In this document: one piece after another, positions 8,770 to 64,000 of the stretch
Numbering within the stretch: position 1 is the first letter of the stretch
Layout of the letters: the number at the start of each line of letters is the position of its first letter
DNA from: a virus
Virus record (IMG/VR): IMGVR_UViG_3300045988_146036
Coordinates: 1 to 64,000 of that record
Reading direction: 5' to 3' (one strand)
DNA: 64,000 bases
Program-made: the position numbers and the translations under genes
The notes under the pieces: generated by a model
The model's database searches: none
What the model was told of the DNA's origin: nothing
Seen by the model: the letters and a program-made list of their open reading frames with translations, nothing else

Positions 8770-9852
8770 TTATTCTTCTTTTAGCAAAAAAGTTGGGGAA
8801 ATCGCTTTAAAGGAAATTCCCTGCTCATAATTTCTGCAAACAATACCTTCACGCTCTTGTGTATCAAGTAATACACTTTTACCACTCGCAAGATTGTTTA
8901 AGGTCTGTAAATCACTTGGCACATTGATACGCTTATAAACTACTGGCACTGTTTTAATGCGAAATTCTTTAAGAAGCTCTTCCATTTTTACTTGTGAAAC
9001 TTTAATGCCGTCAAGAATTAAATTATAAGCATAAAAATCATACCCACTAATCTTATATTTATTAGCTTGGATATTTTGCCCAATAATCTCACCTTGTAAA
9101 ACAACTTTTCTAAAGCCAAAGCAATCTTGAATCTCCTTTAAAGCCTCCTCAATCTGAAAGCGTCTTGCAATTTCCCAATAGGGCGAATTATCTTCCTTAC
9201 GTAGCCAAATATTTCTACTGCAAACCCCAAAAGTGCCGCCGTCTAAAAAGAAAGTTGAACTGCAGCCGTCGATTTTCTCTGTACAAGTTAGCGGAACACT
9301 ATCAGAACGCCATTGTTCAAGCTTATCAGTAATATTTTGCCAGCGTTCTTCATCAGTCTTGCTTGCAATGTAAGTAGGGAACTTTTCATTCTGTACATGG
9401 AATTTTGCATATAAGCGTCTAAACCAACGGAAACGCATTAAAGGCTTCCATAAGAATGTGAATCTTCCTTTTGGGGCAGCAACTGCCATGATTTTATTCT
9501 CTGCTTCAAGTTGCGGGTCAAATTTCGTAATATTCAATACTTTAGTTACATCTTCACCAACAGCGTATTCTTTATTTGGCAAGTAACTTAAAGGCAGAAT
9601 CAAACCTTGTGAAATCTGTTTGCGCAATTTAATAGTCTTAATGCGGTACTTTCTGTCTTTAAGGAACGCAAATTCTGGTCTTGCAGGGAGTACAGAATCT
9701 ACTTCAATATACACTACTTTATCGCCTTGCTGAAAGTTGTCACTCTTACTTACAACACATTCCCAACCTTTTACAGTTGCTTTTAAAATTCTATCTGCAT
9801 TTGGAATAGGCTCTAATTTATCTATAATTTCTACACTTGCTAATTTTCTCAT
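8770..9852 (-). CDS. ATP-dependent RNA/DNA ligase, Rnl5/DraRnl-like (N-terminal OB domain plus nucleotidyltransferase)
   Basis: N-terminus MRKLASVEIIDKLEPIPNADRI (OB-like as in NgrRnl/DraRnl); motif I TEKIDGCS (KxDG); motif IV EGIV; motif V FKAISPTFLLK. Confidence 0.55.
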   Translation of the reverse strand: MRKLASVEIIDKLEPIPNADRILKATVKGWECVVSKSDNFQQGDKVVYIEVDSVLPARPEFAFLKDRKYRIKTIKLRKQISQGLILPLSYLPNKEYAVGEDVTKVLNITKFDPQLEAENKIMAVAAPKGRFTFLWKPLMRFRWFRRLYAKFHVQNEKFPTYIASKTDEERWQNITDKLEQWRSDSVPLTCTEKIDGCSSTFFLDGGTFGVCSRNIWLRKEDNSPYWEIARRFQIEEALKEIQDCFGFRKVVLQGEIIGQNIQANKYKISGYDFYAYNLILDGIKVSQVKMEELLKEFRIKTVPVVYKRINVPSDLQTLNNLASGKSVLLDTQEREGIVCRNYEQGISFKAISPTFLLKEE

Positions 9853-11741
9853 TTAACTACCTCCGCTTCTACTGTTTTTTCATCGTCTGTATCTTCCATA
9901 AAAATTCGTTCTAAAATGCCACCAGATTGGGGATTCGCACCATGAACAACAGTTTGCTCAATACTTCCACCTTTAATTTTTGTTTGTGAAACCATAACTG
10001 GTCGTCCTTTTACTTCGTCTTGCAAATCTTTTAACTTAGTTAAATACCCAAAAGCATCCTGCATTGCCTGTGAAGTAGCCTTTGTAGGTGTTCCACCCAT
10101 AGCTGTTTCAAGCATAAAGGCTTTTTGAGCACGTTCTATTGCTAAATCAGCAATAGCCGTCATTCCCTGTATAACATCTTCTTGTTCCCTGGTATTAAAT
10201 CTACGGAACATTTTATCATATGCACAAATATACCCTGCTTGGTACTCTGTACAGTTTGCTGCCATTACGCATCTATCACAAGAAAGTCTAGGTAAAGCTC
10301 TTGTGGAAAGCTTTTTCTGTCGCTTAACCTTTTTGATACCTTTTAAGATATTGCCATTTTTATCATAAATTGGTTTAATACCTTGTTCTATTAAAGCTTT
10401 TTCAACATCATCTTTATCATATCCAGAAGTTAATAATGCAGGTAGAAGTTCTCCACACTCTTCCCTACTCATTTCAACCTCTAAATACTCTTTTTCTGTA
10501 ATATAGTCCTCACGTTCAAGTGCTATACGCTGCCCCTCTTCTGGATTCTGCAAATTTGACAACTCGTTTCGCATACCGTCAACGTGTTCTTTGAAAGCTT
10601 CTTGCAAAAACTTTATACACTTATCTTTTGTATTATAGTTTGCACCTGTTGCACCAAACATTGCACATAAACCTACAAGGTCGTCAAGCTCATAGTTCTT
10701 GGCTTCTTTAGGCTCGTTTAGAAAAATATAAGCATCATGTAAAATTGTTTCACCCGCTGTTTGAGGAATGTTTGTATCAATTCCTGCTAGTTCTAAGCGT
10801 TCCTGCCAATCTTGCATATCCCCTTCAAACCATGCTGCATCTGGAATAGAGTATCTAGTGTTTGAACGTGCTTCCCAATATTTTTGTGGTCGCATAACAT
10901 TTTTAACGTATTCTTCAAACTTCTTATAGCTAATGGCGTTTGCTTTTATAAGCTCATAAGGAGATTCTATTTCAAGCAACTTCTCCTTTAACCCCAACGC
11001 CTTTAGCTTTTCCATGTATTCCGTTTTCCATTGCTGCTTTTCAAGGTGTTTCATTTGCCCTGCTTCAAAGTAGGTAATTGTACCAAATTGCGCACCTGTC
11101 AAATAAGTAGTAGAATCTGCGGAAAAGAATGGATAGCTCAATAATAGTTTATTGCCTGTAATTGCAAAACCATGAATAGCAGACTTATACCTTTTAGCTA
11201 TTTGGAATAATTGTGAAATGAGATTTTCCCTTTCCCCCATATCCTCAATAGTATGCTTTATCTCCATGTACGAAAATCCAACATATGGATGCTGTTTACA
11301 AAGCTTTTCAAAATGCGATAAATCTTTATCTAAATGATAAAGATAAATAACATTTATTCCTTCTCTTTCTAATGGATAGAAATACTTTTCACGCCAACCT
11401 TCTACAATATCCTCGCCAACAATACTATCAATATCAAGTTCCACGCAGGCAAAGATATAGTCACGATACTCACGTACAAAGTTAACATACTTTACTAAAT
11501 AATCTTCCCACCATTCAATGGTCTTATTATTAAACTCTTTATCATTAAAAAAAATATAAGCACCACTATCAATTAAGACTTTCATTCCTCTATGGGACTT
11601 TAAGCGTTTTACAATTTCATCTAATCCACGTTTACGAATATACTTATAGGAAAGTAGCACATTCTTTGTTACAGAAGATGCTACTTCCCAGTTTTCTTTA
11701 GGCTCAACGCCTGATAATAAAAGCGTAAAATCACCTTTCAT
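9849..11741 (-). CDS. tRNA-guanine transglycosylase superfamily protein, DpdA-like (candidate 7-deazaguanine DNA transglycosylase) with C-terminal extension
   Basis: VLIDSGAY matches the TGT substrate-Asp motif (L/I)(T/I)DSGG(Y/F); Cys cluster SCDRCVMAANC as a candidate Zn site; adjacent to queC. 630 aa is much larger than typical DpdA. Confidence 0.45.
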   Translation of the reverse strand: MKGDFTLLLSGVEPKENWEVASSVTKNVLLSYKYIRKRGLDEIVKRLKSHRGMKVLIDSGAYIFFNDKEFNNKTIEWWEDYLVKYVNFVREYRDYIFACVELDIDSIVGEDIVEGWREKYFYPLEREGINVIYLYHLDKDLSHFEKLCKQHPYVGFSYMEIKHTIEDMGERENLISQLFQIAKRYKSAIHGFAITGNKLLLSYPFFSADSTTYLTGAQFGTITYFEAGQMKHLEKQQWKTEYMEKLKALGLKEKLLEIESPYELIKANAISYKKFEEYVKNVMRPQKYWEARSNTRYSIPDAAWFEGDMQDWQERLELAGIDTNIPQTAGETILHDAYIFLNEPKEAKNYELDDLVGLCAMFGATGANYNTKDKCIKFLQEAFKEHVDGMRNELSNLQNPEEGQRIALEREDYITEKEYLEVEMSREECGELLPALLTSGYDKDDVEKALIEQGIKPIYDKNGNILKGIKKVKRQKKLSTRALPRLSCDRCVMAANCTEYQAGYICAYDKMFRRFNTREQEDVIQGMTAIADLAIERAQKAFMLETAMGGTPTKATSQAMQDAFGYLTKLKDLQDEVKGRPVMVSQTKIKGGSIEQTVVHGANPQSGGILERIFMEDTDDEKTVEAEVVK

Positions 11742-11743
11742 TT

Positions 11744-11968
11744 TTAATTACGCCCCCAAGGTGTGATTCCTTTTCTATTTTTAGTTTTCCAAGAAGTTCT
11801 ATTCATAAATCTATAATATGGATTCGTTTGTAAATTATTTGTGTCGCCTGTTCTTCCCTGCTTAACACTTAAAAATCCACCTTTAGTCTTTTCAACACTT
11901 CTTGCTGCAATTTTAATCTGCGGAACAGAATTTTTCTTCTCCGAATTAGATTTATTTGCCAATCTCAT
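11744..11968 (-). CDS. small basic protein (74 aa)
   Basis: Lys/Arg-rich ORF between queC and the DpdA-like gene. Confidence 0.3.
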   Translation of the reverse strand: MRLANKSNSEKKNSVPQIKIAARSVEKTKGGFLSVKQGRTGDTNNLQTNPYYRFMNRTSWKTKNRKGITPWGRN

Positions 11969-12548
11969 TCCCCTCCTTCAAAAAATAACTAGGGTACCTA
12001 TGTGCTACACGCCATTTACAATTCTCACAAACACCACAAGGCTCGCCATTATCAGAAAAGTTACATGAAAAAGTATCCTCTAATTTTACACCAAGCCTGC
12101 ATCCAATCTTGAAAACATCATCTTTTGTAAGGTCTATGAAGGGTGCTAAAACTTTAACATTTGGAAATTCAATACTTAAAAATGAATTAAGAGCATCTAA
12201 CCATTTATGTGTACAGTCTGGGTATCTAGGAAAATTCTTAATAATTCCTAAATAAATATTTAAAGACTCTCCAACATAAAGCTTTGCAATAATATCCATT
12301 ACAAATAGAGTGTTTCTGTTTGGGATGTAATCTTCACCTAATAAATGTAAGTTAAAGTGTGCTAAATAATCTACATCATTATTAAACTTTTGTGAAAGAC
12401 ATTTAAACTCGTTTAAATTATATGTGCCACCTTCAACTTTAGTATAAAGCGCATGATAAACCTTTAAATCTAAATGCTCATCTTTTTTCAGATAATCATA
12501 AAGTACGGTACTATCATACCCACCACTCATACATATAATATTAGTCAT
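11952..12548 (-). CDS. queC: 7-cyano-7-deazaguanine synthase QueC
   Basis: N-terminal PP-loop ICMSGGYDST (SGGxDS) and C-terminal zinc motif CGVCENCKWR, both QueC hallmarks. Confidence 0.7.
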   Translation of the reverse strand: MTNIICMSGGYDSTVLYDYLKKDEHLDLKVYHALYTKVEGGTYNLNEFKCLSQKFNNDVDYLAHFNLHLLGEDYIPNRNTLFVMDIIAKLYVGESLNIYLGIIKNFPRYPDCTHKWLDALNSFLSIEFPNVKVLAPFIDLTKDDVFKIGCRLGVKLEDTFSCNFSDNGEPCGVCENCKWRVAHRYPSYFLKEGNEIGK

Positions 12549-12549
12549 T

Positions 12550-12861
12550 TTATTCCTCTTTTATAATATAATATCTAAGACTTAATTCTAAGCTTTTCTT
12601 TAGAAGAAATGTATTACTGCCAAAGATAATGACTGAAATATCCCCAAAAAGCATATCTAAGTCTTTAAAATCGTCTTTAGTACACTGTACTAAATGTATA
12701 TCATTCTTACCTGCCCAATCCTTTAAAAATGGTTCTAAAATGGAGGGAATACCCCCCACGATAACGCAAGTTCCTTTAGAACCATTAAAATGAAAAGATA
12801 AAACATCTAGCACATGATAACTTGTTCCTTTAAAATTTTCAAAACTCGCGATGACGTACAT
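12550..12861 (-). CDS. hypothetical Rossmann-like protein (possible SLOG / nucleoside deoxyribosyltransferase-like)
   Basis: Likely start MYVIASF (12861); motif TCVIVGGIPS; weak family assignment. Confidence 0.3.
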   Translation of the reverse strand: MYVIASFENFKGTSYHVLDVLSFHFNGSKGTCVIVGGIPSILEPFLKDWAGKNDIHLVQCTKDDFKDLDMLFGDISVIIFGSNTFLLKKSLELSLRYYIIKEE

Positions 12862-13252
12862 TTTTATCCCTATCCTCACAAATCGGTACAACTGCTTTAT
12901 CATCAATATACACATCTGCATGGATTTTTCTTGCACGTCTTGAACCTTCCCACGATTTAAGTTCCTCTGGAAAACATTGCTTTACTTGTGGCAAATCATC
13001 ATTTACTGCATCAAAGATTAAGCCTCTATAAAGACACCAACGTAGTGCCTCTTGTAAAAACTTACCTTCCCTGCAAGTCCACAAAATAAGCTTATGCCCC
13101 CTACGTTGCAATTCCTTGCAAAATTCCGTGGCAGGAATAAACTTTCCAACTTCTGTCTTATCGAGCATAAGTGTAGAAAACTTTCGCTCTTCCCCAATGT
13201 AAGGATATTGACTATTAACCAATGTACCGTCAAAATCTATTGCATAAATCAT
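12839..13252 (-). CDS. HAD-superfamily phosphatase (probable 5'-deoxynucleotidase)
   Basis: Motif I IDFDGTL (DxDGT) immediately after the probable start MIYAIDFDGTL; downstream KIHADVYIDDK as a candidate motif IV. Confidence 0.5.
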   Translation of the reverse strand: MIYAIDFDGTLVNSQYPYIGEERKFSTLMLDKTEVGKFIPATEFCKELQRRGHKLILWTCREGKFLQEALRWCLYRGLIFDAVNDDLPQVKQCFPEELKSWEGSRRARKIHADVYIDDKAVVPICEDRDKNVRHREF

Positions 13253-13566
13253 TCTGTACACTCCACTGTACGGATACCATGCGCCCATGTATCTACAATT
13301 TCTTTAATACTATCATAGGTAATACCACCTAGGATTGTTAAAGCTGTAGAACATTCATCCTGCGCAACAGGGCATAATTTTTTATCATCCCAAGAATTAA
13401 AATGATAAAGATAGTAATAGTGCTCTTTCTCACCACCAAAAAACTCTAAAACATAAATTGGTTTACCACAAACGGGACATTTAAAATAACCAATAACTTC
13501 TTGCTCTCCCCAAGGAAACAAGATGTTCTCTTTTTCAAGATGTATAAATTCCATTGAATTACTCAT
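13249..13566 (-). CDS. hypothetical Cys-containing protein (105 aa)
   Basis: CPVCGKP motif; no QueD signature (CxxxHGH absent). Confidence 0.35.
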   Translation of the reverse strand: MSNSMEFIHLEKENILFPWGEQEVIGYFKCPVCGKPIYVLEFFGGEKEHYYYLYHFNSWDDKKLCPVAQDECSTALTILGGITYDSIKEIVDTWAHGIRTVECTE

Positions 13567-14186
13567 TGCGCAGTACCCCCTGTGATTAAATAGCTCATAG
13601 GCAACTTAGTTACACATTTGCAGAACCTCTGCCATTCTCTAGACTTGTGATGCTGTCTTTGTGCATACATCGTTTTAAGCTGCAAATAGTTTGTTGTCAT
13701 TCTTGCGGTTAAATGCAAGCCCATAGGAACATTACACATCATGGTGTCAAAATCAATCTTGCCCTCAGTGTAATCTTGAATTGCTCCAACTAAATTAAGC
13801 TTTGCTGTTTCAGTAACAGTAGTATCACACATTTTATCAATATCCATTTTTGTAAGGCAATGTACTTTACTCATTGAGCTTACGAAATCAAACCAGTGAT
13901 AACGCTGTGCCTGCTGCCACCAATATTGAGGTGCATTAACATCCATTTGCACAATAATCCCCTTTAAAAAGTTATTATGCCCAGTTCCTGCAGCCGTACT
14001 ACCAAGCTTTAAAGCTCTTCTAACATGCGCACCTGCTTCTACAGTTCCACGCATAAAAATGTCTGCTGCTACATCAGATACTCCACTTTCAAATTCTTTT
14101 TCGGTAGGAGGCTTTGAAAGCATTGGATAGCCGCTTGCATAAATAGACTCTTCCAATCCATAAAGTTTAACATTAGTAATTAGCAC
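13563..14186 (-). CDS. ThyX-like (flavin-dependent thymidylate synthase family) protein with a divergent active-site motif
   Basis: GHNNFLKGIIVQMDVNAPQYWWQQAQRYHW aligns to ThyX [29 protein letters not shown], but the RHR motif is replaced by RYHW; GTG start. Confidence 0.4.
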   Translation of the reverse strand: MLITNVKLYGLEESIYASGYPMLSKPPTEKEFESGVSDVAADIFMRGTVEAGAHVRRALKLGSTAAGTGHNNFLKGIIVQMDVNAPQYWWQQAQRYHWFDFVSSMSKVHCLTKMDIDKMCDTTVTETAKLNLVGAIQDYTEGKIDFDTMMCNVPMGLHLTARMTTNYLQLKTMYAQRQHHKSREWQRFCKCVTKLPMSYLITGGTAQ

Positions 14187-14310: not shown

Positions 14311-14709
14311 TTAAATCTCCTTTTTAAATAAATCATTAAGCACTCTAGGAACGTAGACACGCTCGCTTTGTGTTTTAACCAACGCTTTTTTCATGTTATT
14401 AGTTGTTTTGCCTAAATTTACCTTTAAATTATGTGAGCCAGAAAGAAATTCTGCCAAAGGCTGTGTAACATCTAGGAAGTCTTTATCCTCTCGTCTTTTT
14501 TTGCTAATATCACGCATTAATTGACAAATTTTAGTGCGCGTACTGCGCTCCGTAGGATAGTTCAACTCACAAAAATGTCGAATATCCCCCAAAGCGCAAT
14601 CATTCTCATGTACAGCATCATATCGGATTCTACGCTCCGCTTCAATGGCTACAATTAGGTCTTTAAAATCTTCTACAATTTTTACTACGTTTTCTTTAGT
14701 GTATTCCAT
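14311..14709 (-). CDS. hypothetical protein (132 aa)
   Basis: ORF with AAGGAGG RBS downstream of the promoter at 14731-14759. Confidence 0.4.
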   Translation of the reverse strand: MEYTKENVVKIVEDFKDLIVAIEAERRIRYDAVHENDCALGDIRHFCELNYPTERSTRTKICQLMRDISKKRREDKDFLDVTQPLAEFLSGSHNLKVNLGKTTNNMKKALVKTQSERVYVPRVLNDLFKKEI

Positions 14710-14766: not shown

Positions 14767-15351
14767 CTAAAGCAATTTATGTAACTTTAAACCTGCTCTT
14801 GCATTTAAACGGTTTTTGGTTAAGAAAGTTTCTATCCTTTTAAAAATGTTTAAATCGTTTTTAAAAGGATAAAGTGTAACCATAGCAGATGTTGGATACT
14901 TCTTTAAAACCTTCTTTACATAATCAAAGTCAGAATCATCTTTTATTACGAATTTAACTTCATCATTACTATGTAATAATCTTAAATTATTTAAGATATT
15001 TTCATTGGCACAGTTTATAATTACACTATAAGCATAAGTTCTGTCATATAAACAATCTTCTAAAGGGATTCTACAAGACGTTTCCATAGTTACAATATAT
15101 GAGTATGCTAACAACTCATATACAAGTGTATAACTATCTTCCTGCAAAAGCGTTTCACCTTTTATACAAACATGCCTGTTTCCTAATTTATTTACTTTTG
15201 AGAGAATTCTATCTATTGACCAATCTGTGCCTTTGGCTAAATCAATAGGCTCTTGTATAAAAGTCGTTGCATATCCTGTGTACCTGCCCTCCCCCTGTAA
15301 AGCCGAATAAATTTCACATACTTTCACTTCGCCCAAAACCTCCCCAGTCAA
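14767..15351 (-). CDS. QueE-like (7-carboxy-7-deazaguanine synthase family) protein lacking the radical-SAM Cys triad
   Basis: EIYSALQGEGRYTG matches QueE EIFxxxQGEG; KGETLLQ matches GGEPLLQ; C-terminus KFVIKDDSDFDYVKKVLKKYP matches B. subtilis QueE VVIFNDEDLEFAKTVHKRYP; but no CxxxCxxC follows the FIQ segment. Confidence 0.5.
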   Translation of the reverse strand: MTGEVLGEVKVCEIYSALQGEGRYTGYATTFIQEPIDLAKGTDWSIDRILSKVNKLGNRHVCIKGETLLQEDSYTLVYELLAYSYIVTMETSCRIPLEDCLYDRTYAYSVIINCANENILNNLRLLHSNDEVKFVIKDDSDFDYVKKVLKKYPTSAMVTLYPFKNDLNIFKRIETFLTKNRLNARAGLKLHKLL

Positions 15352-15712
15352 GCTTAACTATCCTACCGTTTTTAGTACCAAAGTTTTCCAAGGTGCTATC
15401 CTCCAATAAAAAAGCAAGCTCATCACCTGTAACTTTATTCTTAAAATAATCTCTTACTAGATTGGCGCAATCAACACTGCTTAAAGACTTAGCTAAGGGC
15501 TGCACCCTCTCCATTACATTGCACCAACCAAAAGGGAATGAAATATATAATTTAGCTAAATGCTTGCTTTTATTCCTGTATTCCCACTCCTTTAAGTTTT
15601 GCTTACGTCCGTGGTATGGAAAACGTAAGTATGGAAATTTAATAGCAAGATTTCCTATTAAAATTACATACCTTGAACCACCACGTACAGTAGTAAAAAA
15701 ATTATCGTACAT
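15314..15712 (-). CDS. hypothetical protein (132 aa)
   Basis: ORF with GGAGG RBS. Confidence 0.35.
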   Translation of the reverse strand: MYDNFFTTVRGGSRYVILIGNLAIKFPYLRFPYHGRKQNLKEWEYRNKSKHLAKLYISFPFGWCNVMERVQPLAKSLSSVDCANLVRDYFKNKVTGDELAFLLEDSTLENFGTKNGRIVKLDWGGFGRSESM

Positions 15713-15755: not shown

Positions 15756-16037
15756 TCAATTCAAACTTATAAAAAGTTTGATAACTGTTCTTTCTTCACC
15801 CTCTATAAAAGCGGTATCGAACCCTGGCCTTACAACCAAATCCCTACCATTAGAGGCTAAAAATCCACGAGCAACTGCAACTGCTTTAACTGCTTGACTT
15901 ACTGCTGATGCACCACAGCAATTAAGTACAACATTTGCTGCTACGGTTTCTCCGTCACCCTTTACAGTGTGTGCAATACTTCCTGCAAGCTTTTTAACAT
16001 TGCTAGTGCTGCTTACTCTGAAAATTACTTCCTTCAT
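15756..16037 (-). CDS. spoVS: stage V sporulation protein S (SpoVS) homologue
   Basis: 93 aa; AVSQAVKAVAVARGFLASNGRDLVVRPGF...EGEERTVIKL closely matches the SpoVS consensus NQAVKAVAIARGF...GEERTAIKL. Confidence 0.7.
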   Translation of the reverse strand: MKEVIFRVSSTSNVKKLAGSIAHTVKGDGETVAANVVLNCCGASAVSQAVKAVAVARGFLASNGRDLVVRPGFDTAFIEGEERTVIKLFISLN

Positions 16038-17664: not shown

Positions 17665-17932
17665 TTAAAGCACCTGCTGTAACAAATGTCCATAATACCC
17701 AAAAAACAACATTAGCAAAACCCGTGAAGAAAGAAGCTCCCCAAGCCCCAATATATATCAAACTTACAATAAAGACTAATGCACCCAATACTGTGGTCAA
17801 AACAATAATAAGAACTGCAAAAACATCTAGTAACTTTTCAATCATAATTAGCACACACCTTTCTATAATGACAACCATTGCACATAAACGTCTTTTCTGC
17901 TGCTGGGACTTTTCGCTCCCTAACAGCGTCAT
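17624..17932 (-). CDS. small integral membrane protein (102 aa)
   Basis: Two or three predicted TM helices. Confidence 0.35.
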   Translation of the reverse strand: MTLLGSEKSQQQKRRLCAMVVIIERCVLIMIEKLLDVFAVLIIVLTTVLGALVFIVSLIYIGAWGASFFTGFANVVFWVLWTFVTAGALNGISTFISKRVSN

Positions 17933-18731
17933 TTATAGCTGAGAACTTTTTAAGAGCTTTAGTAGTAGCTGCCTTATCTGTATAAGCAAACTCTTTCAAC
18001 TCTTGTGTATCCTTATTCTCATAAAGAAATATAACTTTTTTTACAGGTTTTGGGTATTTTTCTAAAAAATCAAGAGTGTTCTTAAAATCTTTAAACCTGC
18101 TATTTACCTTATCCTTTTTAAAATGCACTTTTCCGTCTAAAGAGGTAGTATCTTCCAAAAAAGAATCTAGTTTGTATAAATACTCTTGTTCTAACTCTTT
18201 GCGCTTTCCTAATAAGATTAAATTACGCATAGTATTTAAACAATACATGTAGATACTTGCTTGCATCTTGTGTTCTGGCTTTGCATCTTTAAGGCCTGCA
18301 AATCCCATAGAATTAATACTCTTAATTTCGAGCACTGCAATAGACCTATCTTTATCTAAAAGCAAGCCATCTGTTGTTCCCATAATTTGATAAGCTTTAT
18401 CATATAAAGGGGCTTCATCTGCTAAAAGAACACCACTTTGCAGAAGATAATTCTGTAAACGAATATGTGTATAAGTACCATTATCAAAGATTCGCTGTAA
18501 ACGTGGTTCGTTACTAGGAAAATCTGGTGGTAAACCTATACGACCAAAGTAGACACTTCTACTACAATAACCAACACTACTAGGACTGTTCCAACCATGC
18601 CCCCTATCAACACCTGCTTTTAAATTACGCAAAGTTTCTTCAATAGCAGGGATAAGTAACTTGTCCGCTGTATCATTGGAAATTTTATTAATATTTTTTA
18701 AGCTTCCTTTTATCTTCATCTGTACCTCCAT
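17838..18731 (-). CDS. Cas4-like / RecB-family PD-(D/E)xK exonuclease with C-terminal Cys cluster
   Basis: DKDRSIAVLEIKS (D..ExK) and C-terminal FMCNGCHYRKVC Cys cluster typical of Cas4-like Fe-S nucleases. Confidence 0.5.
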   Translation of the reverse strand: MEVQMKIKGSLKNINKISNDTADKLLIPAIEETLRNLKAGVDRGHGWNSPSSVGYCSRSVYFGRIGLPPDFPSNEPRLQRIFDNGTYTHIRLQNYLLQSGVLLADEAPLYDKAYQIMGTTDGLLLDKDRSIAVLEIKSINSMGFAGLKDAKPEHKMQASIYMYCLNTMRNLILLGKRKELEQEYLYKLDSFLEDTTSLDGKVHFKKDKVNSRFKDFKNTLDFLEKYPKPVKKVIFLYENKDTQELKEFAYTDKAATTKALKKFSAINDAVRERKVPAAEKTFMCNGCHYRKVCANYD

Positions 18732-20443: not shown

Positions 20444-20956
20444 TTATTTTGCATCATAATAACTATGCCCATAATCTGGGACTGCCTCCAAAGGAATTGT
20501 CAGATTTATGCCACGTTCCTGTAAACAATGTTCCATATGATATTGTAAACGCTCCATTCCAAGTTCCACGTATTTGGTTGGACACATTAAGCCTAACTCA
20601 TCGTGTACATTTAAGAATAAGTATGCACCTATTGCTTTAAGCACTGGGTCGCGGTCAACATCTAAGGTAGCAAACATTGCTACGTCCCCACCTGCACCCT
20701 GGCTCATTACATTTACCGCCACACGTTCTAAGTAGGAAGCTACTCTCTTATCACTGCTGTTAATATCCCATAAATGCCTTTTATGCCCACCAAGAGTCTT
20801 TACAAACCCATTTGACTGTGCAAAACGTATTACAGCTTTATCATAAGTATGCAAACCATAGAAACCTTCAAAATAACGGTCAATGTATTTCTGTGCTGTC
20901 TTTTGGTCTACATCCAAATTCTTACTTACTGCAACAGAAGTGCCGCCATAATCTAC
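20444..20956 (-). CDS. DNA polymerase I (family A), exon 2 (C-terminal; motif B tail and motif C)
   Basis: VDYGGTSVAVSKNLDVDQKTAQKYIDRYF aligns to Taq VLYGMSAHRLSQ...IERYF; VHDEL is motif C; the frame is open upstream of the tool start back to 20956. Confidence 0.7.
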   Translation of the reverse strand, partial: VDYGGTSVAVSKNLDVDQKTAQKYIDRYFEGFYGLHTYDKAVIRFAQSNGFVKTLGGHKRHLWDINSSDKRVASYLERVAVNVMSQGAGGDVAMFATLDVDRDPVLKAIGAYLFLNVHDELGLMCPTKYVELGMERLQYHMEHCLQERGINLTIPLEAVPDYGHSYYDAK

Positions 20957-21699
20957 CAGTCCGTTGTCCAGTATTACTACTGGTGTCAGACTATGCCTTT
21001 AGAACTCGCTGCCAGTAAAAACCATATATTTTAGTTTTATTTCTAATAGCCACTCTAATACCACTTGTATCTTTAGGAAAGTAACCAAGGCTATTTAAAA
21101 ACTTTAACACACTCTCTTTACTAACCAACGTATGTAATACATTACCATCACAATCACAAAGTAAATAGGTAACTGCATGATGCTCTTTTTGATGGCACTT
21201 CTTACATAATACTTGCAAGTTTGTATCTTCATTATTTTGCCTATTACCATCCCTATGATGTACCACTAAGTTCTTTATACTACCGCAAATCTCACATTTT
21301 GCCCCGTCAATTTTTGCCTTTAGAGGATAGCCCTTTATTCCATTCTTATAGAATGGCGAATCCTTACCTTTAGGCTGGGCATTATGTAAAAACCCACGGC
21401 TTTCACGGTCTTTAAAACGTGCATATCTTAACTTAGCTTCATATTTACAGTATACACAAAATTTTTGATTACGTCCAGTAGGAATATAATAATTCCCACA
21501 ATATTCACAAACTCTTTCTTTCATAGTTCATGTTCCCCATTAAATGTATTCGTAAGATTTATACTTAAAGTATAGCGATACATTATAAGTCGTTACACCG
21601 TCTTTTTACAAAGAAATTCGGCACGGCGTTGACCATTAAGTTATGGCAATCTTAATGGCTTTCACCGTTATGAGAGGAATTTTACTTCACCATACCTTT
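20957..21699 (-). mobile_element. group I intron (743 nt) carrying an HNH homing endonuclease, splitting the polA gene
   Basis: Exon 1 ends GGC TTC GCT (5' splice site after U, followed immediately by an in-frame stop KGMVK*); exon 2 starts GTA GAT TAT GGC after ...CTG (3' splice site after G). The predicted spliced junction KKIGFA|VDYGG restores pol I motif B. Confidence 0.65.
20991..21524 (-). CDS. HNH homing endonuclease (intron-encoded)
   Basis: N-terminal zinc ribbon CEYCG...CVYC; HNH motif LVVHHRDGNRQNN...CKKCHQKEHH. Confidence 0.75.
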   Translation of the reverse strand: MKERVCEYCGNYYIPTGRNQKFCVYCKYEAKLRYARFKDRESRGFLHNAQPKGKDSPFYKNGIKGYPLKAKIDGAKCEICGSIKNLVVHHRDGNRQNNEDTNLQVLCKKCHQKEHHAVTYLLCDCDGNVLHTLVSKESVLKFLNSLGYFPKDTSGIRVAIRNKTKIYGFYWQRVLKA

Positions 21700-23442
21700 A
21701 GCGAAGCCTATTTTTTTTGCAATTTGCCTTTTAGCAGGCTCACGCTTCTTTACATCATTCGGATTCATGTTTGCAAGCTCTGGAAAAACGATAGTTGCAA
21801 CTGTACCATGCGGGTCTAAGTTCTCTCTCAACATCTTTAAAAGCATCTTATCTTGTGACAAATGCGCCGTTAAGTATTTCTCCAAAGCATGATAATCACA
21901 AGCTATTACACTATAACCCTCATCAGCTATAAACAGCTTTCTTATTTCAAACCGTTCCCAAAAGTCAAAGTAGGTTCTATCTTCACCCGCTTTCGGCTCT
22001 TCTAGTGGGTGCGGCAGCTGCTGGAGGTTTGGGTATTGACTACTTAATCTATAAGAATCCGTGCCACAAATATTGAAGCTACAATGGACTTTACCATCAC
22101 TATAAATATTCTCCCTTAACCCTATCATAAATGCACTAATAAGTTTAGAAAGTTTTTTATAAGTTACAAGCTCTGTAATAAAATCATGTGCTTTTGCATC
22201 AACATTCTTCTGCTTTAAAAGAGCTTTTAAAATATCCCCACCTGTTTTCGGCGTTTGTAACTCTTCATAACCATATTTACCACCTGTTGTAAACTCTATT
22301 GGTTTAAAACCAAAGTTTACGTCTACTAAATTATTATTGCAAGATTCTACAAACATTACCTGTGAAGGCTCATTCATATACAAGTTTTTAAGCTTAGTTT
22401 TTTCAGTCGTAGTGTATCCAACACTTTCCATTTCAAAGGCATTTTGTGCGCTTGGAGTAAGCCTCATAACTTTCTTTTTAAAGCCAAAAAGGATTTCATA
22501 AAGATGTTGTCCACTATCGGGATTAAACTCTACCCCTGTCAAAGAAAACATTTTATATTTAGAGTTTTCTAATTCTTTCTCTGCAAGTTCCTGCATCTTA
22601 TCAAGGGCAGCAATATCTACACTTACACCTTTTCTTTCCATTTTCCAAAGTGCTTTCATAAAAGGCATACGGCACTTAATATACATATCATAAGAATCAT
22701 CTTCTCTTAGACCTTTTTCAAGCATTGGATACATTTGCTTCATAAACCAAACGTCCTCGGCTGAATACTGCGCTCCGATTGGAATTTGAACATGCTGAAA
22801 GCTTGCATTATTAGTAGCCTTTAAACCCTGTGAAAGCTTTTCTTCTTTAGTAACAGTTTTAATGGTATCACTATAATGTGACTTTTCAACTTTAAAAATC
22901 ATCTTAGTAACACTTTCAAGATTCTTTTCTACATTCTCATCTAGTGTATGCACCATTATTTGTGTATCTTGAAAAGTGTTTACATCAAAGACTTTATAAA
23001 TATCAATTCCTTCATTAGCTAGTAAATGTAAATCATAATCTTGATTATGCGCAATGTATTCTTTACCACCGCACTCCATAATAGATTTAAGTTCTGCTGC
23101 AAACTTAAAAGAGTCTACGTTATAATAAGTTCCTTCAAATTTTTCTGGACAAAAATCTAGGAACTTTTCAAGCTGTGCTTTCTTCAAGAAAGAGAATCTG
23201 CCATTATCCTCATATTTTCCCTCGAACACGTGTCTTACAGGAACATAAAAAACATCTTTAGATGTAGCATCATCAAAAGCAAATGTAAAGCCTACTGTAT
23301 AATCTTTACCCACAGCACGTACATTTAACCCGGATGTTTCAGTATCCCAAAAGACTTGTCTTGCACTTTTAAATAGATTTAAAAAGGCACTTAGAGTACC
23401 TTCTTGAACAATATTTAATTTAAAATACTTTTGGTGATACAT
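21700..23442 (-). CDS. DNA polymerase I (family A), exon 1 (3'-5' exonuclease domain through motif B start)
   Basis: Exo I motif VFWDTETSGL; ends RQIAKKIGFA (motif B RxxAKxxNFG). Confidence 0.7.
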
Positions 23443-57171: not shown

Positions 57172-58767
57172 CTATTCCTTTGGGGGATTAATGTTTCCAA
57201 GTCCATTGTTTATCTTAGAATCTTTACCCTCACGTGTTCTTCCAACAGTGCCTTTTAAGTCTACCTGTGGACTAGCAGTCGACGTTGTTTGCGGCTGCTC
57301 TTTTTCTTTCACAATAACTTTGCCATCAAAAGTGCTAACAAGCCTGTTACCACTAGGCAAACTTACTGGCTGTATTCCATAGAATTGCGGATTATCTGCA
57401 ACATCTTGTTTAATGTTGGAGATTAAATTAGAAACATCATCTTTATAAAGTCTTGTCATAGCATCTTCCCTTGTTGTTAGACCTGCTTTTAACTCAGACT
57501 GTATCATTTCCAATTCTTTCGCCCTATCCCTTGGTAGAATATCTCCCCACCAAACTCTATGGTTATAGAAAATAAAGTTATCTGCTCTCTTTGGAACTTT
57601 AATCATTCCCTCTACAATACCTATTTTCATAATAACTTTATTTATCTGTACTATTGATTTTGCGCTTTGAACGCGCTTCTGATTTATTAAATCTGTTAGA
57701 GGCATAAAAGCAATTTCTAAAGCTACACCACTCAAATTGCTTGGCGCGCTTTCACCACCTATTGCAAGTTTTGGCATACTACCTACATTATAAATAGTAT
57801 CCATTACCCTATCAATGTAGTTATTAGAAGCTACTAAATCACCATCTAAACCTAAATTATATACCTTTGCTTTCTCTGGAACGCACCACATCTTATTAGC
57901 ACCACGCTCCAAATTATGCGGCTTTGCACCCTGTACAATCGTCGTAGGGGCAGCATTATAATCTAGAATTTGCGAAATATCACTTGTTTTCAGATTATAT
58001 TCAGTATTCAGATAAATTAAATCCTTTAAATCCGAACGACCAAACATTGAACCAGACTGTACTAAATTTCTGAAAGGTATAATGGGAATTACACCATACT
58101 TATTCGGATAAATCGCAACCTCATTGCTATTCTCAAAAATCGTTATTGACGAATTTGTGTAAACATAACGCATTATCTTCTGCTTATTCTTGCCTAAGAG
58201 TCCTGTATCATCCACAGCATACATAACTGTAACAGACTCTAAAGCATCAAAATCATCATTATAACCATCCTTATATTTTGGGAATACAAGGCTTGAAGGA
58301 ATTGCATAAAGACGTATACGTCCTTTCGGATACATACCAAAGGGGTCATTCATATCTTCGGCTTCCTCAAAAGCTACATGCACATAAGCATCCCCAGTTA
58401 CAGATTTTATCTGTCCAACCTTAGACATTAAATCAGAACCATTATTATCATCCCAAACATTATTTAAGAATGGTAACACAATTTCTTCTACCTTCTTATC
58501 GAACTTGAAAAGAAAGCCACTATTAAATTCTGTTGCAACATATTTATCTACAAAGCGTCCGCACCAGTTTGTTGTTACTTCTGGTCTATCATCTGATACT
58601 ATGCCTTCCCAGTGGTATCCATTATAAAAGTTCCAGTAGTCTGAATAGTCCCTAAGTCGTTGCTTATCTTCCTCATTCATATAAAGGCTCATCCTATCTG
58701 CTACTGCAAAAGGCGCAAATAACTTCTGCATGACCAATTTTCCTAAATTACTAATATTACTCACCAC
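57172..58767 (-). CDS. portal protein
   Basis: 531 aa directly downstream of the terminase large subunit (7-nt overlap). Confidence 0.6.
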   Translation of the reverse strand: MVSNISNLGKLVMQKLFAPFAVADRMSLYMNEEDKQRLRDYSDYWNFYNGYHWEGIVSDDRPEVTTNWCGRFVDKYVATEFNSGFLFKFDKKVEEIVLPFLNNVWDDNNGSDLMSKVGQIKSVTGDAYVHVAFEEAEDMNDPFGMYPKGRIRLYAIPSSLVFPKYKDGYNDDFDALESVTVMYAVDDTGLLGKNKQKIMRYVYTNSSITIFENSNEVAIYPNKYGVIPIIPFRNLVQSGSMFGRSDLKDLIYLNTEYNLKTSDISQILDYNAAPTTIVQGAKPHNLERGANKMWCVPEKAKVYNLGLDGDLVASNNYIDRVMDTIYNVGSMPKLAIGGESAPSNLSGVALEIAFMPLTDLINQKRVQSAKSIVQINKVIMKIGIVEGMIKVPKRADNFIFYNHRVWWGDILPRDRAKELEMIQSELKAGLTTREDAMTRLYKDDVSNLISNIKQDVADNPQFYGIQPVSLPSGNRLVSTFDGKVIVKEKEQPQTTSTASPQVDLKGTVGRTREGKDSKINNGLGNINPPKE

Positions 58768-60389
58768 CTATTGCGCATATAACGCCTTGTCCTTCCTCTT
58801 CTTGCACCCATAAGAGTATTAGAAGATGATTCTATAAATTTATTAGTAGAAATTTCTTCCACATCGCCTACTTGATGTTTCATGCTCCATACCATTAAAG
58901 CTGCACTAAATGGGTAATCATCATGTTTATTTCGCTCTTTAGGGGCAGCAACTACTAAATTGTTTCCCCTATAATCCTTTGTAAGTTCTACACACTGCTC
59001 TTGGAATTTCTTATACTCAATCGTGCTTTGTGTTTCCTCATTAGAAGGATAATGAAAACAGTTTGCATTAATGTAGGCATTAAAGTATTTCATTAACATA
59101 GATTTACTAGGAGGTGTGAAAACAAAAGGTATTACAGGGAAACTTACGTTAGCTGCTAACCTATCTGCAACAGGGCTTCCAACACCAGTGCCATCTATGA
59201 TGCACACTTTTACATTAAAATTCTTTAGATAGTCCATTATCTCATAAAATTGTTGTTCATAGTTATCACCAACAATTTCAAGCCAATCTATTATCTTTAC
59301 ATCATATATAACATAATCCTCTGCCCCAATCTCTTTGGATTTCTCTATAATTATTGGGTGGCTCTTATCTGCTATACCCACAGTAACAACAGTGCTATCA
59401 TTTGCCTTTCCAACATCTATTCCTACATAGCAGGGTTGGTCACAAGAATGTTGCCTACCTACCTTACTCATTGCAATAGGTTCTGCTAAGAATTTCTCAC
59501 TATTAATAAACATACCATAGCTAAATAGCCATTTTAGTTTATAGTTCATTAAAAATTCCTCACTGCCCTCACCCATCAATTCAATGGCTGCTTGGACAGT
59601 TTTAGCATAATAAGGATTATACTTTATAATAGTATCACTATCGTACTCTAAATGGTTTCTAAATGCAATTTTTCTTCCTTTCCATTTTGCCTTGTTTAAT
59701 TGAATAGCATCATAAAAGAAATTCTTCTTTATAGTTGGAGTACCAATTAAAATCTTTGTTCCGTTAAAATGGGAAGTAGTAGGAAAGATTGATTTCCTGT
59801 ACTTATAATTACTTATATCTTGGGATTCATCACAAATACATAAATGATATGTACCACCTTCGACATTTGCTCCATCACTAGCAGACTTACAAACGATTGA
59901 AGATTTTATATCTAAATTATTAAATATCAAGGTAATCTTATTTCCATTAAAAGTACCAAAACTAATATTAAATTCTGGACTTTCTAGTATCTCACGTGCT
60001 CTTGCACTTGAAAAGAAGTCCTTAACATTATCAAAGATAATCTGTGACTGGTCTTTACATGGGGCGAAAATACCTACCTTCATACCATCCCTAAACAACC
60101 TCAGCCGAGGGTCGTCTAAGAACATTGGCATATTTGCCAATATGGGAAGTATTATCATTACTGCTGCCGTTGTTAAAGATACTGTATAACTCTTACCACA
60201 CTGACGCGCCATAAGACCTGTAATAGTATCTTGGTCGTTCTCTAAAATAGCCCTAAAGATGCGTTGTGCAAACTCTACCTGATAAGCATAAAATCTTTTA
60301 CCGCATAATGTTTCTGCGAAAATTGTTATTTTTCTGACTAATTTAGTCGTAGAAAGTCGCTCACCTATACAGCTCATTTTATCCTCCAA
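58761..60389 (-). CDS. terminase large subunit
   Basis: Walker A LMARQCGKSYTV; terminase-type nuclease C-terminal half; likely start MSCIG with GGAGG RBS. Confidence 0.7.
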   Translation of the reverse strand: MEDKMSCIGERLSTTKLVRKITIFAETLCGKRFYAYQVEFAQRIFRAILENDQDTITGLMARQCGKSYTVSLTTAAVMIILPILANMPMFLDDPRLRLFRDGMKVGIFAPCKDQSQIIFDNVKDFFSSARAREILESPEFNISFGTFNGNKITLIFNNLDIKSSIVCKSASDGANVEGGTYHLCICDESQDISNYKYRKSIFPTTSHFNGTKILIGTPTIKKNFFYDAIQLNKAKWKGRKIAFRNHLEYDSDTIIKYNPYYAKTVQAAIELMGEGSEEFLMNYKLKWLFSYGMFINSEKFLAEPIAMSKVGRQHSCDQPCYVGIDVGKANDSTVVTVGIADKSHPIIIEKSKEIGAEDYVIYDVKIIDWLEIVGDNYEQQFYEIMDYLKNFNVKVCIIDGTGVGSPVADRLAANVSFPVIPFVFTPPSKSMLMKYFNAYINANCFHYPSNEETQSTIEYKKFQEQCVELTKDYRGNNLVVAAPKERNKHDDYPFSAALMVWSMKHQVGDVEEISTNKFIESSSNTLMGARRGRTRRYMRNRW

Positions 60390-63103: not shown

Positions 63104-63505
63104 TACCCCTTTAAGAAAAAGCCCATTTACAATACACATATCTAAAGATGTTTCTATAAAACTTGTGGCTTTTAATTGTTTCATTTCCTTAATTGATTGC
63201 TCCGACATTCTTAAAGGCTTCTGTGGTGCATCATAAGGTAAATCATCTAGGAAGTACCTTATTAATACATCCCCAACACCTAAATCTGCACTAGGCTTAA
63301 ACCCCCTAGAAGTCATAACTAATACTCCTAGAGGGATATTTAAGTCACCGTTAATACAAATATAATCTAGCGAATCATTAACTTCTTTAAAAGGGCATTT
63401 CACTATTAAAGTTGTTTCGTCACTATAAAAACGTCCCACAGGTTTTGTAAGTAACATATCACCACGTTTAGGACTTATTACTGTTGAATCATTTAAAAGT
63501 TTCAT
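63089..63505 (-). CDS. hypothetical protein (138 aa); not NrdG (no Cys cluster)
   Basis: ORF overlapping the NrdD stop by 4 nt. Confidence 0.3.
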   Translation of the reverse strand: MKLLNDSTVISPKRGDMLLTKPVGRFYSDETTLIVKCPFKEVNDSLDYICINGDLNIPLGVLVMTSRGFKPSADLGVGDVLIRYFLDDLPYDAPQKPLRMSEQSIKEMKQLKATSFIETSLDMCIVNGLFLKGVLTNI

Positions 63506-64000
63506 AATACGCTAAAATCCCCACCTAAATGTACAAATCTGTCACGAATTTCTTCGGTACGTCCTTGATTCCAAAACTGACTTCCAATGTAACCACACGT
63601 CCTACGCGCAACATTCATTTTTGTCTTGTCTTTATTTCCACAATTCGGACACTCCCACTCTAGTCTGCCGTGGTCAGTAACAATCTTAATCTCACCATCA
63701 TATCCACAGACTTGACAATAATCACTCTTAGTATTTAATTCAGCATACATAATATTATCATAAATAAACTGAATAACCGTGATAACAGCATCTAAATTCT
63801 TAGTCATATCAGCACATTCAATATAGCTAATAGCACCACCTGGACTAAGTAATTGAAATTCAGATTCAAATTTCAATTTTGTAAAAGCATCTATTGGCTC
63901 TCTCACATGAACATGGTAACTATTAGTGATATAATCATGGTCTGTAATGCCTTTAATCTCACCAAAACGACTCTTTAAACATTTCGCAAATTTATAAGTC
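63502..64000 (-). CDS. nrdD: anaerobic ribonucleoside-triphosphate reductase NrdD, C-terminal part (5' end beyond the window)
   Basis: Zn ribbon CQVCGY...CPNCGN and glycyl-radical motif RTCGYIGS; the frame stays open to the window edge. Confidence 0.7.
   Translation of the reverse strand, partial: TYKFAKCLKSRFGEIKGITDHDYITNSYHVHVREPIDAFTKLKFESEFQLLSPGGAISYIECADMTKNLDAVITVIQFIYDNIMYAELNTKSDYCQVCGYDGEIKIVTDHGRLEWECPNCGNKDKTKMNVARRTCGYIGSQFWNQGRTEEIRDRFVHLGGDFSVL

Follow-up and report, generated by a model that had tools for sequence, protein, structure and literature searches.

A DpdA1-type barrel fused to a Cys4/hairpin module shared with putative small terminases in a BCD7-like phage

In the window, i.e. 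the whole 64-kb stretch of viral DNA that was analysed (IMG/VR record IMGVR_UViG_3300045988_146036, positions 1 to 64,000), a gene for a protein of 630 amino acids (aa) is located at positions 9849..11741 of the minus strand. This entry of the ORF list is a genuine gene. It starts with an ATG codon, a G-rich ribosome binding site lies 11 nt 5′ of the start, and a stop/start overlap (ATGA) couples it to the RNA ligase gene that follows. A further 28 relatives of the protein were detected at E ≤ 1e-33, 22 of them comprising 605-676 aa. The product is a two-part protein consisting of a DpdA barrel and a separate C-terminal module, with a helical linker domain between them. While the DpdA enzyme type is already known, the variant found here is its fusion to a helical module with a predicted metal site.

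The gene is surrounded by genes for replication and for the synthesis of 7-deazaguanine. Its upstream neighbour (11952..12548, minus strand) is a QueC-like gene of the 7-cyano-7-deazaguanine synthase family (Pfam QueC, 1.3e-23; NCBIfam TIGR00364, 7.6e-21, below the curated cut-off), whose product is 26% identical to QueC of Bacillus phage BCD7. A QueE-like radical SAM gene of the 7-carboxy-7-deazaguanine synthase family (14767..15351, minus strand; PHROG 2076) matched the NCBIfam QueE models at 5.9e-23, likewise below the curated cut-off, and revealed 34% identity to BCD7 QueE. Both genes lie within 3.6 kb of the DpdA fusion. The closest isolated relative of the 630-aa protein is BCD7 gp21 (YP_007005872), a full-length homolog (33% identity, aa 7-627) that also contains the barrel, the middle domain and the module. 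The two phages have the gene order Cas4-like exonuclease, RusA, SpoVS, QueE, QueC, DpdA in common, and their TerL, portal and MCP genes are homologous. On the other hand, gp21 is 757 aa long and harbors a long low-complexity insert between the barrel and the middle domain, and BCD7 possesses recognisable folE and queD genes, for which searches with Pfam, NCBIfam, PDB phmmer and BLAST against BCD7 revealed no counterpart among the neighbouring ORFs of the window. Supplementary Data 1 of Hutinet et al. (2019) gives gp21 as DpdA, along with FolE, QueD, QueE and QueC. The main texts of two DpdA survey papers (PMC10516641, PMC6884629) say nothing about the C-terminal module.

The N-terminal part of the protein (aa 1-295; 10857..11741, minus strand) was analysed by structure prediction, Foldseek and alignment with the DpdA proteins of phages 9g and BS162P1. 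In the AlphaFold model, it forms eight beta/alpha units (pLDDT about 90) with a beta8/alpha8 insertion, made up of a helix, a beta-hairpin and short helices, and is closed by a long helix. The three top Foldseek matches in the PDB were Cap10 (9ntn, twice; 4.6e-5 and 9.2e-5) and a tRNA-guanine transglycosylase (TGT; 4fr1, 1.6e-3). PHROG 887 was matched across the full length of the protein (E=2.5e-65), and tblastn led to 9g-type DpdAs, which are 23-27% identical over aa 25-235. At the sequence level, the protein did not match any PDB chain, any Pfam family at E ≤ 1 (including the TGT model PF01702) or any NCBIfam family at E ≤ 0.1, and neither a profile of the full family nor one of the barrels including 9g recovered a TGT among the solved TGT/DpdA structures. 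Since these profile bridges failed, the assignment of the fold is based on Foldseek and on the homology to 9g DpdA. Together, these data bear out the assumption of an earlier note on this DNA that the N-terminal part is DpdA/TGT-like, and we are confident that aa 1-295 represent a DpdA1-type barrel homologous to the validated phage DpdA1 enzymes of the 9g type. The tblastn matches listed (40 of 50 records) were of the DpdA1 type and did not include the phages named for DpdA2 (nt-1/VH7D), DpdA3 (phiST/CP220) and DpdA4 (HVTV-1). Neither Campylobacter nor Cellulophaga appeared in the itemised categories of the organism tally, to which five more organism categories that were not itemised have to be added.

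The motif VLIDSGAY (aa 55-62), which the earlier note had aligned with the catalytic pocket of TGTs, contains the triplet D58-S59-G60 (11562..11570, minus strand). This triplet does not vary among 20 family members and is also found in 9g DpdA (D72-S-G). The histidine of the HGF motif, H190 (11172..11174, minus strand), corresponds to His196 of 9g, a residue whose equivalent is present in DpdA1 and absent in DpdA2 (PMC6884629). D209 (11115..11117, minus strand), located in the motif SADSTT at the end of strand beta8 (residues 207-210 in the model), does not vary within the family and lines up with D215 of 9g. In the bacterial DpdA of Salmonella Montevideo (bDpdA), for which a crystal structure has been published, Asp95 is the general acid/base, Asp256 the nucleophile and Asp130 serves base recognition (PMC10164549). 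D58 is probably the counterpart of Asp95. D209 is probably that of Asp256, as judged from invariance and position rather than from a residue-by-residue superposition. A candidate for Asp130 is D103 (motif ELDID), which is invariant in the 20-member family but falls into a gap of the 9g alignment. Thus, the protein shares with bacterial DpdA and the TGTs the (beta/alpha)8 barrel, the beta8/alpha8 insertion with helix and beta-hairpin and, with this restriction on the third one, the three active-site aspartates. What separates them is the zinc site CXCX2CX22H, which in TGTs and bDpdA is part of the beta8/alpha8 insertion and anchored to helix alpha8 (PMC10164549), and the four-helix bundle of Ins8. 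Both are missing in the 630-aa protein, which has no cysteine between residues 149 and 358. As the zinc motif is also absent from the aligned 9g DpdA, it does not define DpdA1. The similarity to the enzymes of 9g and CAjan comprises the DSG aspartate, the His196 equivalent, the beta8 aspartate, the lack of the zinc motif and the clustering with que genes.

These properties also bear on the question whether the protein might be a tRNA-modifying enzyme that puts queuine or preQ1 into tRNA of the host or the phage. PHROG 887 and the RefSeq entry of BCD7 gp21 indeed carry the label 'queuine tRNA-ribosyltransferase'. However, this label is inherited from superfamily similarity, the lack of any Pfam or NCBIfam match and of the zinc site does not fit a tRNA enzyme, and for the closest characterised relatives (9g/CAjan type), the target of preQ0 insertion is DNA and not tRNA (PMC6884629). 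A role in tRNA modification is thus very improbable.

Short DpdAs such as those of 9g (317 aa) and BS162P1 (275 aa) align to aa 1-295 only. Hence, the protein is about twice as long as an ordinary phage DpdA, as had been noted before, but its C-terminal extension comprises about 335 aa (aa 296-630) and not the proposed 110 residues. 9g DpdA stops at the end of the barrel and has neither the helical linker domain nor the Cys4/hairpin module. The first part of the extension (aa 296-415; 10497..10856, minus strand) was recognised by the model and by conservation as an acidic, all-helical domain (helices within residues 302-387; net charge of aa 296-415, -13) followed by a poorly modelled linker containing a conserved ERExY motif (E409, R410, Y413). 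It is limited to the BCD7-like subgroup. By contrast, the remaining 215 or so residues (aa 416-630) are an independent conserved unit. This module begins with a small alpha/beta unit (aa 416-475; 10317..10496, minus strand) that was predicted by a second model (pLDDT 81-94) as beta-alpha-alpha-beta-beta and that resembles a winged helix in the order of its elements only. It is followed by a basic linker (KKLSTRALPR) and a Cys4 knuckle (aa 476-519; 10185..10316, minus strand) seen in the conservation and in the model, in which the cysteines are spaced C488-x2-C491-x5-C497-x8-C506 (pLDDT about 97). The family signature of the knuckle reads C-x2-C-x5-C-P-x-[YF]-x3-G-[YF]-x-C, and its four cysteines are invariant in 96 sequences as well as in 76 standalone proteins. 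The knuckle is a predicted metal site that may hold Zn or [4Fe-4S]; the spacing CxxCx5C is also known from iron-sulfur nucleases of the Cas4/AddB type. Two models agree on a long antiparallel helical hairpin (H520-547 and H554-577; aa 520-577, 10011..10184, minus strand) with conserved ER, E and GG positions, which is a candidate for an oligomerisation core. The model of the C-terminal end (aa 578-630; 9852..10010, minus strand) comprises a beta-hairpin (582-601), the NPxxGGILxRIF helix (aa 607-614; nt 9900-9923) and an acidic tail; this helix is kept in fused, split and standalone forms of the module.

Given this architecture, the picture of one enlarged TGT-like enzyme whose cysteine cluster SCDRCVMAANC (aa 487-497) would be the canonical zinc site and whose tail of about 110 aa might act as an ATPase partner can hardly be upheld. 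It has in its favour that a Cys-rich and a DSG motif occur in one protein of 630 aa. The cluster, though, lies about 280 residues past D209, the last barrel aspartate, its pattern CxxCx5Cx8C differs from CXCX2CX22H, and it belongs to a separate module that is common to non-DpdA proteins and occurs in 105 proteins without any barrel; it is therefore not the TGT zinc site. An ATPase-partner function is without support since no Walker A or B motif is present. The architecture census and the alignments have already refuted the enlarged-enzyme reading. What holds of the earlier proposal is, in general terms, that an accessory part has been fused to the enzyme. A DNA-binding function, which had also been suggested, is possible for the short basic stretch and the knuckle, whereas the rest of the extension is acidic.

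A family search with the module yielded 274 representatives at E ≤ 1e-3. This widespread family has no Pfam model and is marked by a very sharp Cys4 signature. Among 175 proteins that were classified, 105 consisted of the module only and 64 of barrel and module. The standalone proteins lack a DpdA barrel and comprise about 290 aa (240-300 aa in metagenomic forms). Split forms in which the module is encoded beside a short DpdA were found in Bacteroides phage BS162P1 and at two further loci (L042, L010). In BS162P1, the short DpdA (37% identical to the barrel) is directly followed by the module gene (251 aa). These two separate proteins (BS162P1_00087/00088) have no middle domain and are both annotated as hypothetical. 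In Gordonia phages, the module constitutes the C-terminus of annotated small terminases (TerS), e.g. gp8 of phage Monty, whose gene overlaps the start of terL, and PHROG 6902 ('terminase small subunit') was matched by 16 of 76 standalone module proteins. The putative TerS proteins (Monty gp8/PHROG 6902 and metagenomic forms) share with the 630-aa protein the Cys4 knuckle, the helical hairpin with its ER, E and GG positions and a TerS-like order of elements, the metagenomic ones also the C-terminal I/L-x-R-I/L-F helix. Unlike the fusion, they have no DpdA barrel and adjoin TerL, the position from which their TerS function was deduced.

The large terminase gene of the phage that encodes the fusion (58761..60389, minus strand; 45% identity to BCD7 TerL) is located about 47 kb from the DpdA fusion. 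Its product is 34% identical to TerL adjoining standalone module genes, and the TerL, portal and MCP genes at these loci are homologous to those of the window. At all eight loci examined, which represent six distinct sequences (L016/L017 and L019/L020 gave identical matches), the standalone gene lies 0.8-1.2 kb upstream of the TerL-portal-MCP genes and is the sole conserved gene upstream of TerL; several other standalone proteins are encoded on contigs that are too short to reveal their neighbours. In the window, TerL is preceded by phosphoesterase/ligase genes, with no small ORF in between according to the ORF list. The closest relatives of the window likewise lack a small ORF upstream of TerL. 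The cultured phages of this TerL clade are exactly those with the DpdA-linked module. Neither BCD7 nor GiJojo has an annotated TerS, and the module is present in a single copy both in the window and in the complete genome of BCD7. Moreover, the module's predicted order of elements fits the TerS protomer scheme of a DNA-binding unit, a helical hairpin, a beta stalk and a C-terminal tail (PMC9611059), though the DNA-binding unit of the model is not a recognised HTH. A Foldseek search of BFVD detected TerS of Gordonia phage Jumbo (1.7e-3); no solved TerS was matched in the fold search. Based on these data, a TerS-like role of the module is plausible.

The data also include observations that fit another explanation, an ordinary DpdA equipped with an accessory DNA-binding or oligomerisation domain unrelated to packaging. 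In that case, the Cys4/hairpin unit would be a generic DNA-handling module reused in several phage proteins, some small terminases among them, and would only make the transglycosylase bind DNA more tightly, act more processively or prefer certain sequences more strongly, while a separate, unrecognised TerS would serve packaging. This is in line with the location of the fusion gene amid replication and 7-deazaguanine synthesis genes, far from TerL, and with BS162P1, in which the module remains beside the short DpdA at a distance of 50 kb from a TerL-related gene. A standalone module was absent near TerL in 80 of 80 loci of TerL relatives, in a search that detected the positive controls, which lowers our confidence in the TerS reading. 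Small ORFs that could be TerS are present upstream of TerL in BCD7 and several relatives. The basic stretch ahead of the knuckle would suit a DNA-binding accessory, as would the finding that bacterial DpdA requires a partner, DpdB, and ATP for guanine exchange on DNA (PMC10164549). No such partner was seen for the 630-aa protein. An accessory domain leaves unexplained, however, why in one lineage no gene upstream of TerL other than the standalone form is conserved, and why all cultured phages of the clade have the module. Furthermore, the lineage of the window has no TerS candidate adjoining TerL, and the small ORFs gp105-108 of BCD7 have no counterpart in the window. We regard this explanation as a serious one, with a chance of somewhat more than one in three. 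Five contigs on which fusion and TerL could both be checked were all devoid of a standalone copy near TerL, but this mutual exclusivity carries little weight because contigs without a known fusion lacked such a copy too.

On balance, the explanation that we prefer, and to which we assign about an even chance, is a DpdA1 barrel joined to an oligomerising module that ties modification to DNA, most likely to packaging DNA. By homology, the barrel would flip a guanine out of the double-stranded phage DNA and, with D209 presumably acting as nucleophile and D58 as acid/base, swap in a 7-deazaguanine base. This base is most probably preQ0 or a compound closely derived from it, to whose synthesis the QueE-like and QueC-like enzymes encoded nearby would contribute. 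The acidic helical domain would join the barrel to the module, which may oligomerise via its hairpin and bind DNA and/or the large terminase. Such an oligomer could keep a number of DpdA domains bound to phage DNA, most probably to DNA that is being fed into packaging, and it is conceivable that the module is the phage's small terminase. In its strongest form, this idea means that the DpdA fusion itself is the small terminase of the BCD7-like phages, a ring of roughly 8-12 subunits with a crown of DpdA barrels. We consider this rather doubtful. The fusion gene does not occupy the position of a TerS gene, being 47 kb away from TerL. A literature search for a link between DpdA and terminases returned nothing relevant. 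If the fusion were indeed the small terminase, the ring would recognise phage DNA and recruit TerL via the conserved C-terminal helix, insertion of 7-deazaguanine would be physically coupled to the initiation of packaging, and the split and standalone forms would be evolutionary stages in which a TerS gene was captured by a DNA-modification operon.

Modification of phage DNA by DpdA enzymes is believed to follow replication, and the levels of modification differ between subfamilies from <0.1% to 100% of G (PMC10516641). The preferred explanation touches the questions how packaged genomes become modified and why these levels vary so strongly between DpdA subfamilies. A DpdA joined or adjacent to a module that elsewhere takes the position of a small terminase suggests a testable route, namely that an oligomeric scaffold tethers the enzyme either to DNA or to the complex that initiates packaging, and the separate encoding of the module beside the packaging motor in related phages is a hint of a possible physical link between modification and packaging. 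Should the module be a DNA-binding accessory only, the protein would be a known enzyme with a modestly altered architecture. The module family may also account for 'missing' small terminases in BCD7-like phages, BRock-like Streptomyces phages and some Bacteroides phages.

The ORF list of the window contains a 630-codon ORF with an ATG start (9849..11741) on the minus strand, which carries nearly all genes of the window; GC skew is negative throughout. The preceding small ORF terminates ahead of the start codon, a ribosome binding site rich in G is located 11 nt upstream of this codon, and the stop overlaps (ATGA) with the start of the next gene, coding for an RNA ligase. Apart from a copy with 98% identity, a family search yielded 28 homologs (29 proteins in total), all of them unnamed; 22 of the 28 have lengths of 605-676 aa. 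A 99% identical gene was found on a 99-kb IMG/VR contig. Because of the ORF, the ribosome binding site, the motifs discussed below, the 28 homologs and this copy, the gene is regarded as real and conserved. The RNA ligase (8770..9852, minus strand) contains a PHA02142 OB-fold domain and is translationally coupled to the fusion gene. An RNA ligase gene also exists in Streptomyces phage GiJojo, about 4.5 kb upstream of the terminase gene.

The N-terminal part of the protein is a DpdA. No Pfam or NCBIfam family matched the protein, but PHROG 887 ("queuine tRNA-ribosyltransferase") covered it completely (E=2.5e-65), and tblastn against phage genomes aligned aa 25-235, with 23-27% identity, to the DpdA proteins of 9g, JenK1 and SE1 and of phages related to them. 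An AlphaFold model calculated from the family alignment showed eight beta/alpha repeats with a pLDDT of about 90 as far as residue 290. The best three Foldseek matches in the PDB belong to the tRNA-guanine transglycosylase (TGT) superfamily, two chains of the type IV CBASS protein Cap10 (9ntn) and a tRNA-guanine transglycosylase (4fr1), followed by generic TIM barrels. Thus, the DpdA/TGT-like nature proposed in the earlier note on account of VLIDSGAY (aa 55-62) is supported for the N-terminal part. D58-S59-G60, H190-G191-F192 and D209-S210 are invariant in the family and in the homologs of 9g, BCD7 and BS162P1; in the alignment, D58, H190 and D209 correspond to D72, H196 and D215 of 9g. His196 has been named as present in DpdA and missing from DpdA2 (Hutinet et al. 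2019, PMC6884629). By analogy to the structure and mutagenesis of Salmonella DpdA (PMC10164549), D58 is predicted to act as acid/base and D209, located where strand beta8 ends, as nucleophile. D103 is likely the base-recognition aspartate; the alignment to 9g is ambiguous at this position. In relatives longer than 1100 aa, the extra length is due to inteins with LAGLIDADG homing endonucleases and not to additional functional domains. Three such DpdA-module fusions (P0041, P0050 and P0053; 1119-1152 aa) harbor the intein at about aa 230-657, shortly past the position of the nucleophile aspartate. To our knowledge, inteins in DpdA genes have not been mentioned before.

The neighborhood of the gene fits this assignment. 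Upstream, within a replication/recombination block, are genes for a QueC-like protein (11952..12548) and a QueE-like radical SAM protein (14767..15351). The order Cas4-like exonuclease, RusA, SpoVS, QueE, QueC, DpdA is common to the window and Bacillus phage BCD7, whose large terminase (TerL), portal and major capsid proteins share 45%, 35% and 50% identity with their counterparts in the window. BCD7 gp21 (757 aa), the only full-length homolog from an isolated phage among the matches listed, has already been placed in the DpdA column together with FolE, QueD, QueE and QueC (Hutinet et al. 2019, Supplementary Data 1); therefore, the enzyme itself is of a known kind. FolE and QueD were not recognized in the window. 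Three conserved phage ORFs of unassigned function (PHROGs 6721, 2717 and 4301; 13563..14186, 14311..14709 and 15314..15712, minus strand) are located in the interval from the QueC-like to the QueE-like gene, or flank QueE at the position of QueD/FolE in BCD7. They had no match in Pfam, NCBIfam or PDB sequences and could be very divergent or non-orthologous stand-ins for FolE/QueD. The same block contains the SpoVS homolog shared with BCD7 (15756..16037, minus strand; Pfam 1.9e-24) and a BT0820-family HAD phosphatase (12839..13288, minus strand). As to the host, these two clash, since SpoVS points to spore-forming Firmicutes and the phosphatase to Bacteroides. Most related contigs originate from one large metagenome (IMG 3300045988).

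Ordinary phage DpdA proteins (275-317 aa) can be aligned only to residues 1 to about 295. Hence, the C-terminal extension comprises approximately 335 aa and not about 110 aa as originally estimated. The cysteine cluster SCDRCVMAANC is indeed present (aa 487-497), but it belongs to another unit than the TGT zinc site for which it had been taken. The zinc site of TGT and bDpdA (CXCX2CX22H) lies within the beta8/alpha8 insertion, pinned to helix alpha8 (PMC10164549), while C488-x2-C491-x5-C497-x8-C506 is situated some 280 residues past D209 and residues 149-358 are devoid of cysteine. The zinc motif is likewise absent from 9g DpdA. A suggested ATPase partner function was not borne out, as the protein contains neither a Walker A nor a Walker B motif. 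A second model, for aa 416-630, was calculated from 96 sequences and reached a mean pLDDT of 85, with about 97 in the region of the cysteines. According to the two models, the barrel is followed by a helical domain of acidic character (aa 300-390), a linker that was modelled poorly and bears a conserved ERExY motif (aa 409-413), and a small beta-alpha-alpha-beta-beta unit (aa 419-473). The basic linker KKLSTRALPR leads to the Cys4 knuckle, which precedes a hairpin of two long antiparallel helices (aa 520-547 and 554-577). A beta-hairpin (aa 582-601) comes next, then a short helix with a conserved GGILxRIF motif (aa 607-614) and finally an acidic tail. Cas4/AddB-type nucleases possess a C-terminal iron-sulfur motif with CxxCx5C spacing, and the first three cysteines of the module (aa 488-497) are spaced in the same way. 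The module might bind an Fe-S cluster instead of zinc. The Cas4-like exonuclease of the window (17838..18731, minus strand) matched the cysteine part of the module profile only at chance level (E=2.5).

When aa 296-630 served as query, an exhaustive phmmer search retrieved 274 representative proteins at E<=1e-3. Among 175 sequences, 64 contained the DpdA barrel and the module, and 105 the module only. The latter are typically 200-330 aa long and have the Cys4 signature, C-x2-C-x5-C-P-x-[YF]-x3-G-[YF]-x-C, around position 100. In the hairpin, an R, an E and a G are invariant or almost so, as are the four cysteines. Standalone module proteins matched no Pfam family. Their PHROG matches were confined to PHROG 887, in its C-terminal part, and, for 16 of 76 proteins, PHROG 6902 ("terminase small subunit"). 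Barrel and module are encoded by separate genes in Bacteroides phage BS162P1 (00087 and 00088, 50 bp apart) and in the metagenomic record MT835482 (1.8 kb apart), and by two overlapping ORFs at locus L042, while at L010 the ORF upstream of the module gene resembles the barrel only weakly. In Streptomyces phages of the BRock group, the fusion has 500 aa and lacks the mid domain. That barrel and module are repeatedly fused or adjacent argues that they act together. We are confident of each half of the description, namely that a DpdA1-type DNA transglycosylase is joined to a conserved module with a Cys4 knuckle and a helical hairpin.

At eight loci (L006, L008, L015, L016/L017, L018 and L019/L020; six distinct sequences) a standalone module gene precedes, by 0.8-1.2 kb, genes for TerL, portal and major capsid proteins that are 24-38% identical to those of the window. 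When six of these loci were compared, the module gene was the sole conserved gene upstream of TerL; the small ORFs in between vary by locus. In Gordonia phage Monty, the 467-aa annotated small terminase, whose gene overlaps the TerL start, contains the module at about aa 295-400. The general plan of small terminase protomers runs from a DNA-binding unit through a helical-hairpin core and a beta stalk to a flexible TerL-binding C-terminal part (PMC9611059), and the modelled module appears to follow the same order of elements. The module is very probably homologous to the standalone packaging-region proteins and annotated small terminases.

In profile searches, the window and the complete BCD7 genome each had a single copy of the module, in both cases inside the DpdA gene. 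No small terminase is found among the 140 annotated features of BCD7, and for GiJojo, a curated Streptomyces phage, a single "terminase" is listed. Upstream of TerL in the window (58761..60389, minus strand) there is no small ORF, but genes for a dNMP kinase, an ATP-dependent DNA ligase and a phosphoesterase. The closest viral contigs, including five that carry the fusion too, share this layout. Ten of 50,697 phage records encode a TerL related to that of the window (E<=1e-20), and all ten are also among the records with a DpdA-linked module (BCD7, BRock-like phages, BS162P1, MT835482). A scaffold role seems the likeliest reading, with about even chances: the module would oligomerize and tether the enzyme to the DNA of the phage, in all likelihood while this DNA enters packaging. 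The stronger claim, that the fusion itself is the small terminase and couples modification to packaging, we consider possible but less likely than not. The main rival, an accessory DNA-binding domain independent of packaging, is a serious but lesser possibility, in line with the location of the fusion gene in the replication/recombination block. The accessible literature holds no account of the Cys4/hairpin module or of a DpdA-terminase connection.

In viral contigs with a TerL about 34% identical to that of the window (L131-L183), TerL is directly preceded by a conserved set of ORFs: one of about 80 aa that overlaps the start of TerL, one of about 105 aa, and one of about 247 aa whose termini are basic. 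These ORFs are unrelated to the Cys4 module and to everything else in the window, and the set may represent a different, undescribed small-terminase solution within the same TerL clade. Elsewhere in the window, the DNA polymerase is apparently split (20444..20917, 20991..21524 and 21682..23442, all minus strand): ORFs of 586 and 157 aa match consecutive profile positions of PHROG 17 (DNA polymerase), and the 177-aa ORF between them could be a homing endonuclease or intron-like insertion. A 134-aa ORF (63502..63906, minus strand) contains CxxC pairs and ends with an RRTCGYIG-type motif resembling the glycyl-radical C-terminus of the anaerobic ribonucleotide reductase NrdD; judging from these motifs, it may be a fragment of NrdD or part of a split NrdD.
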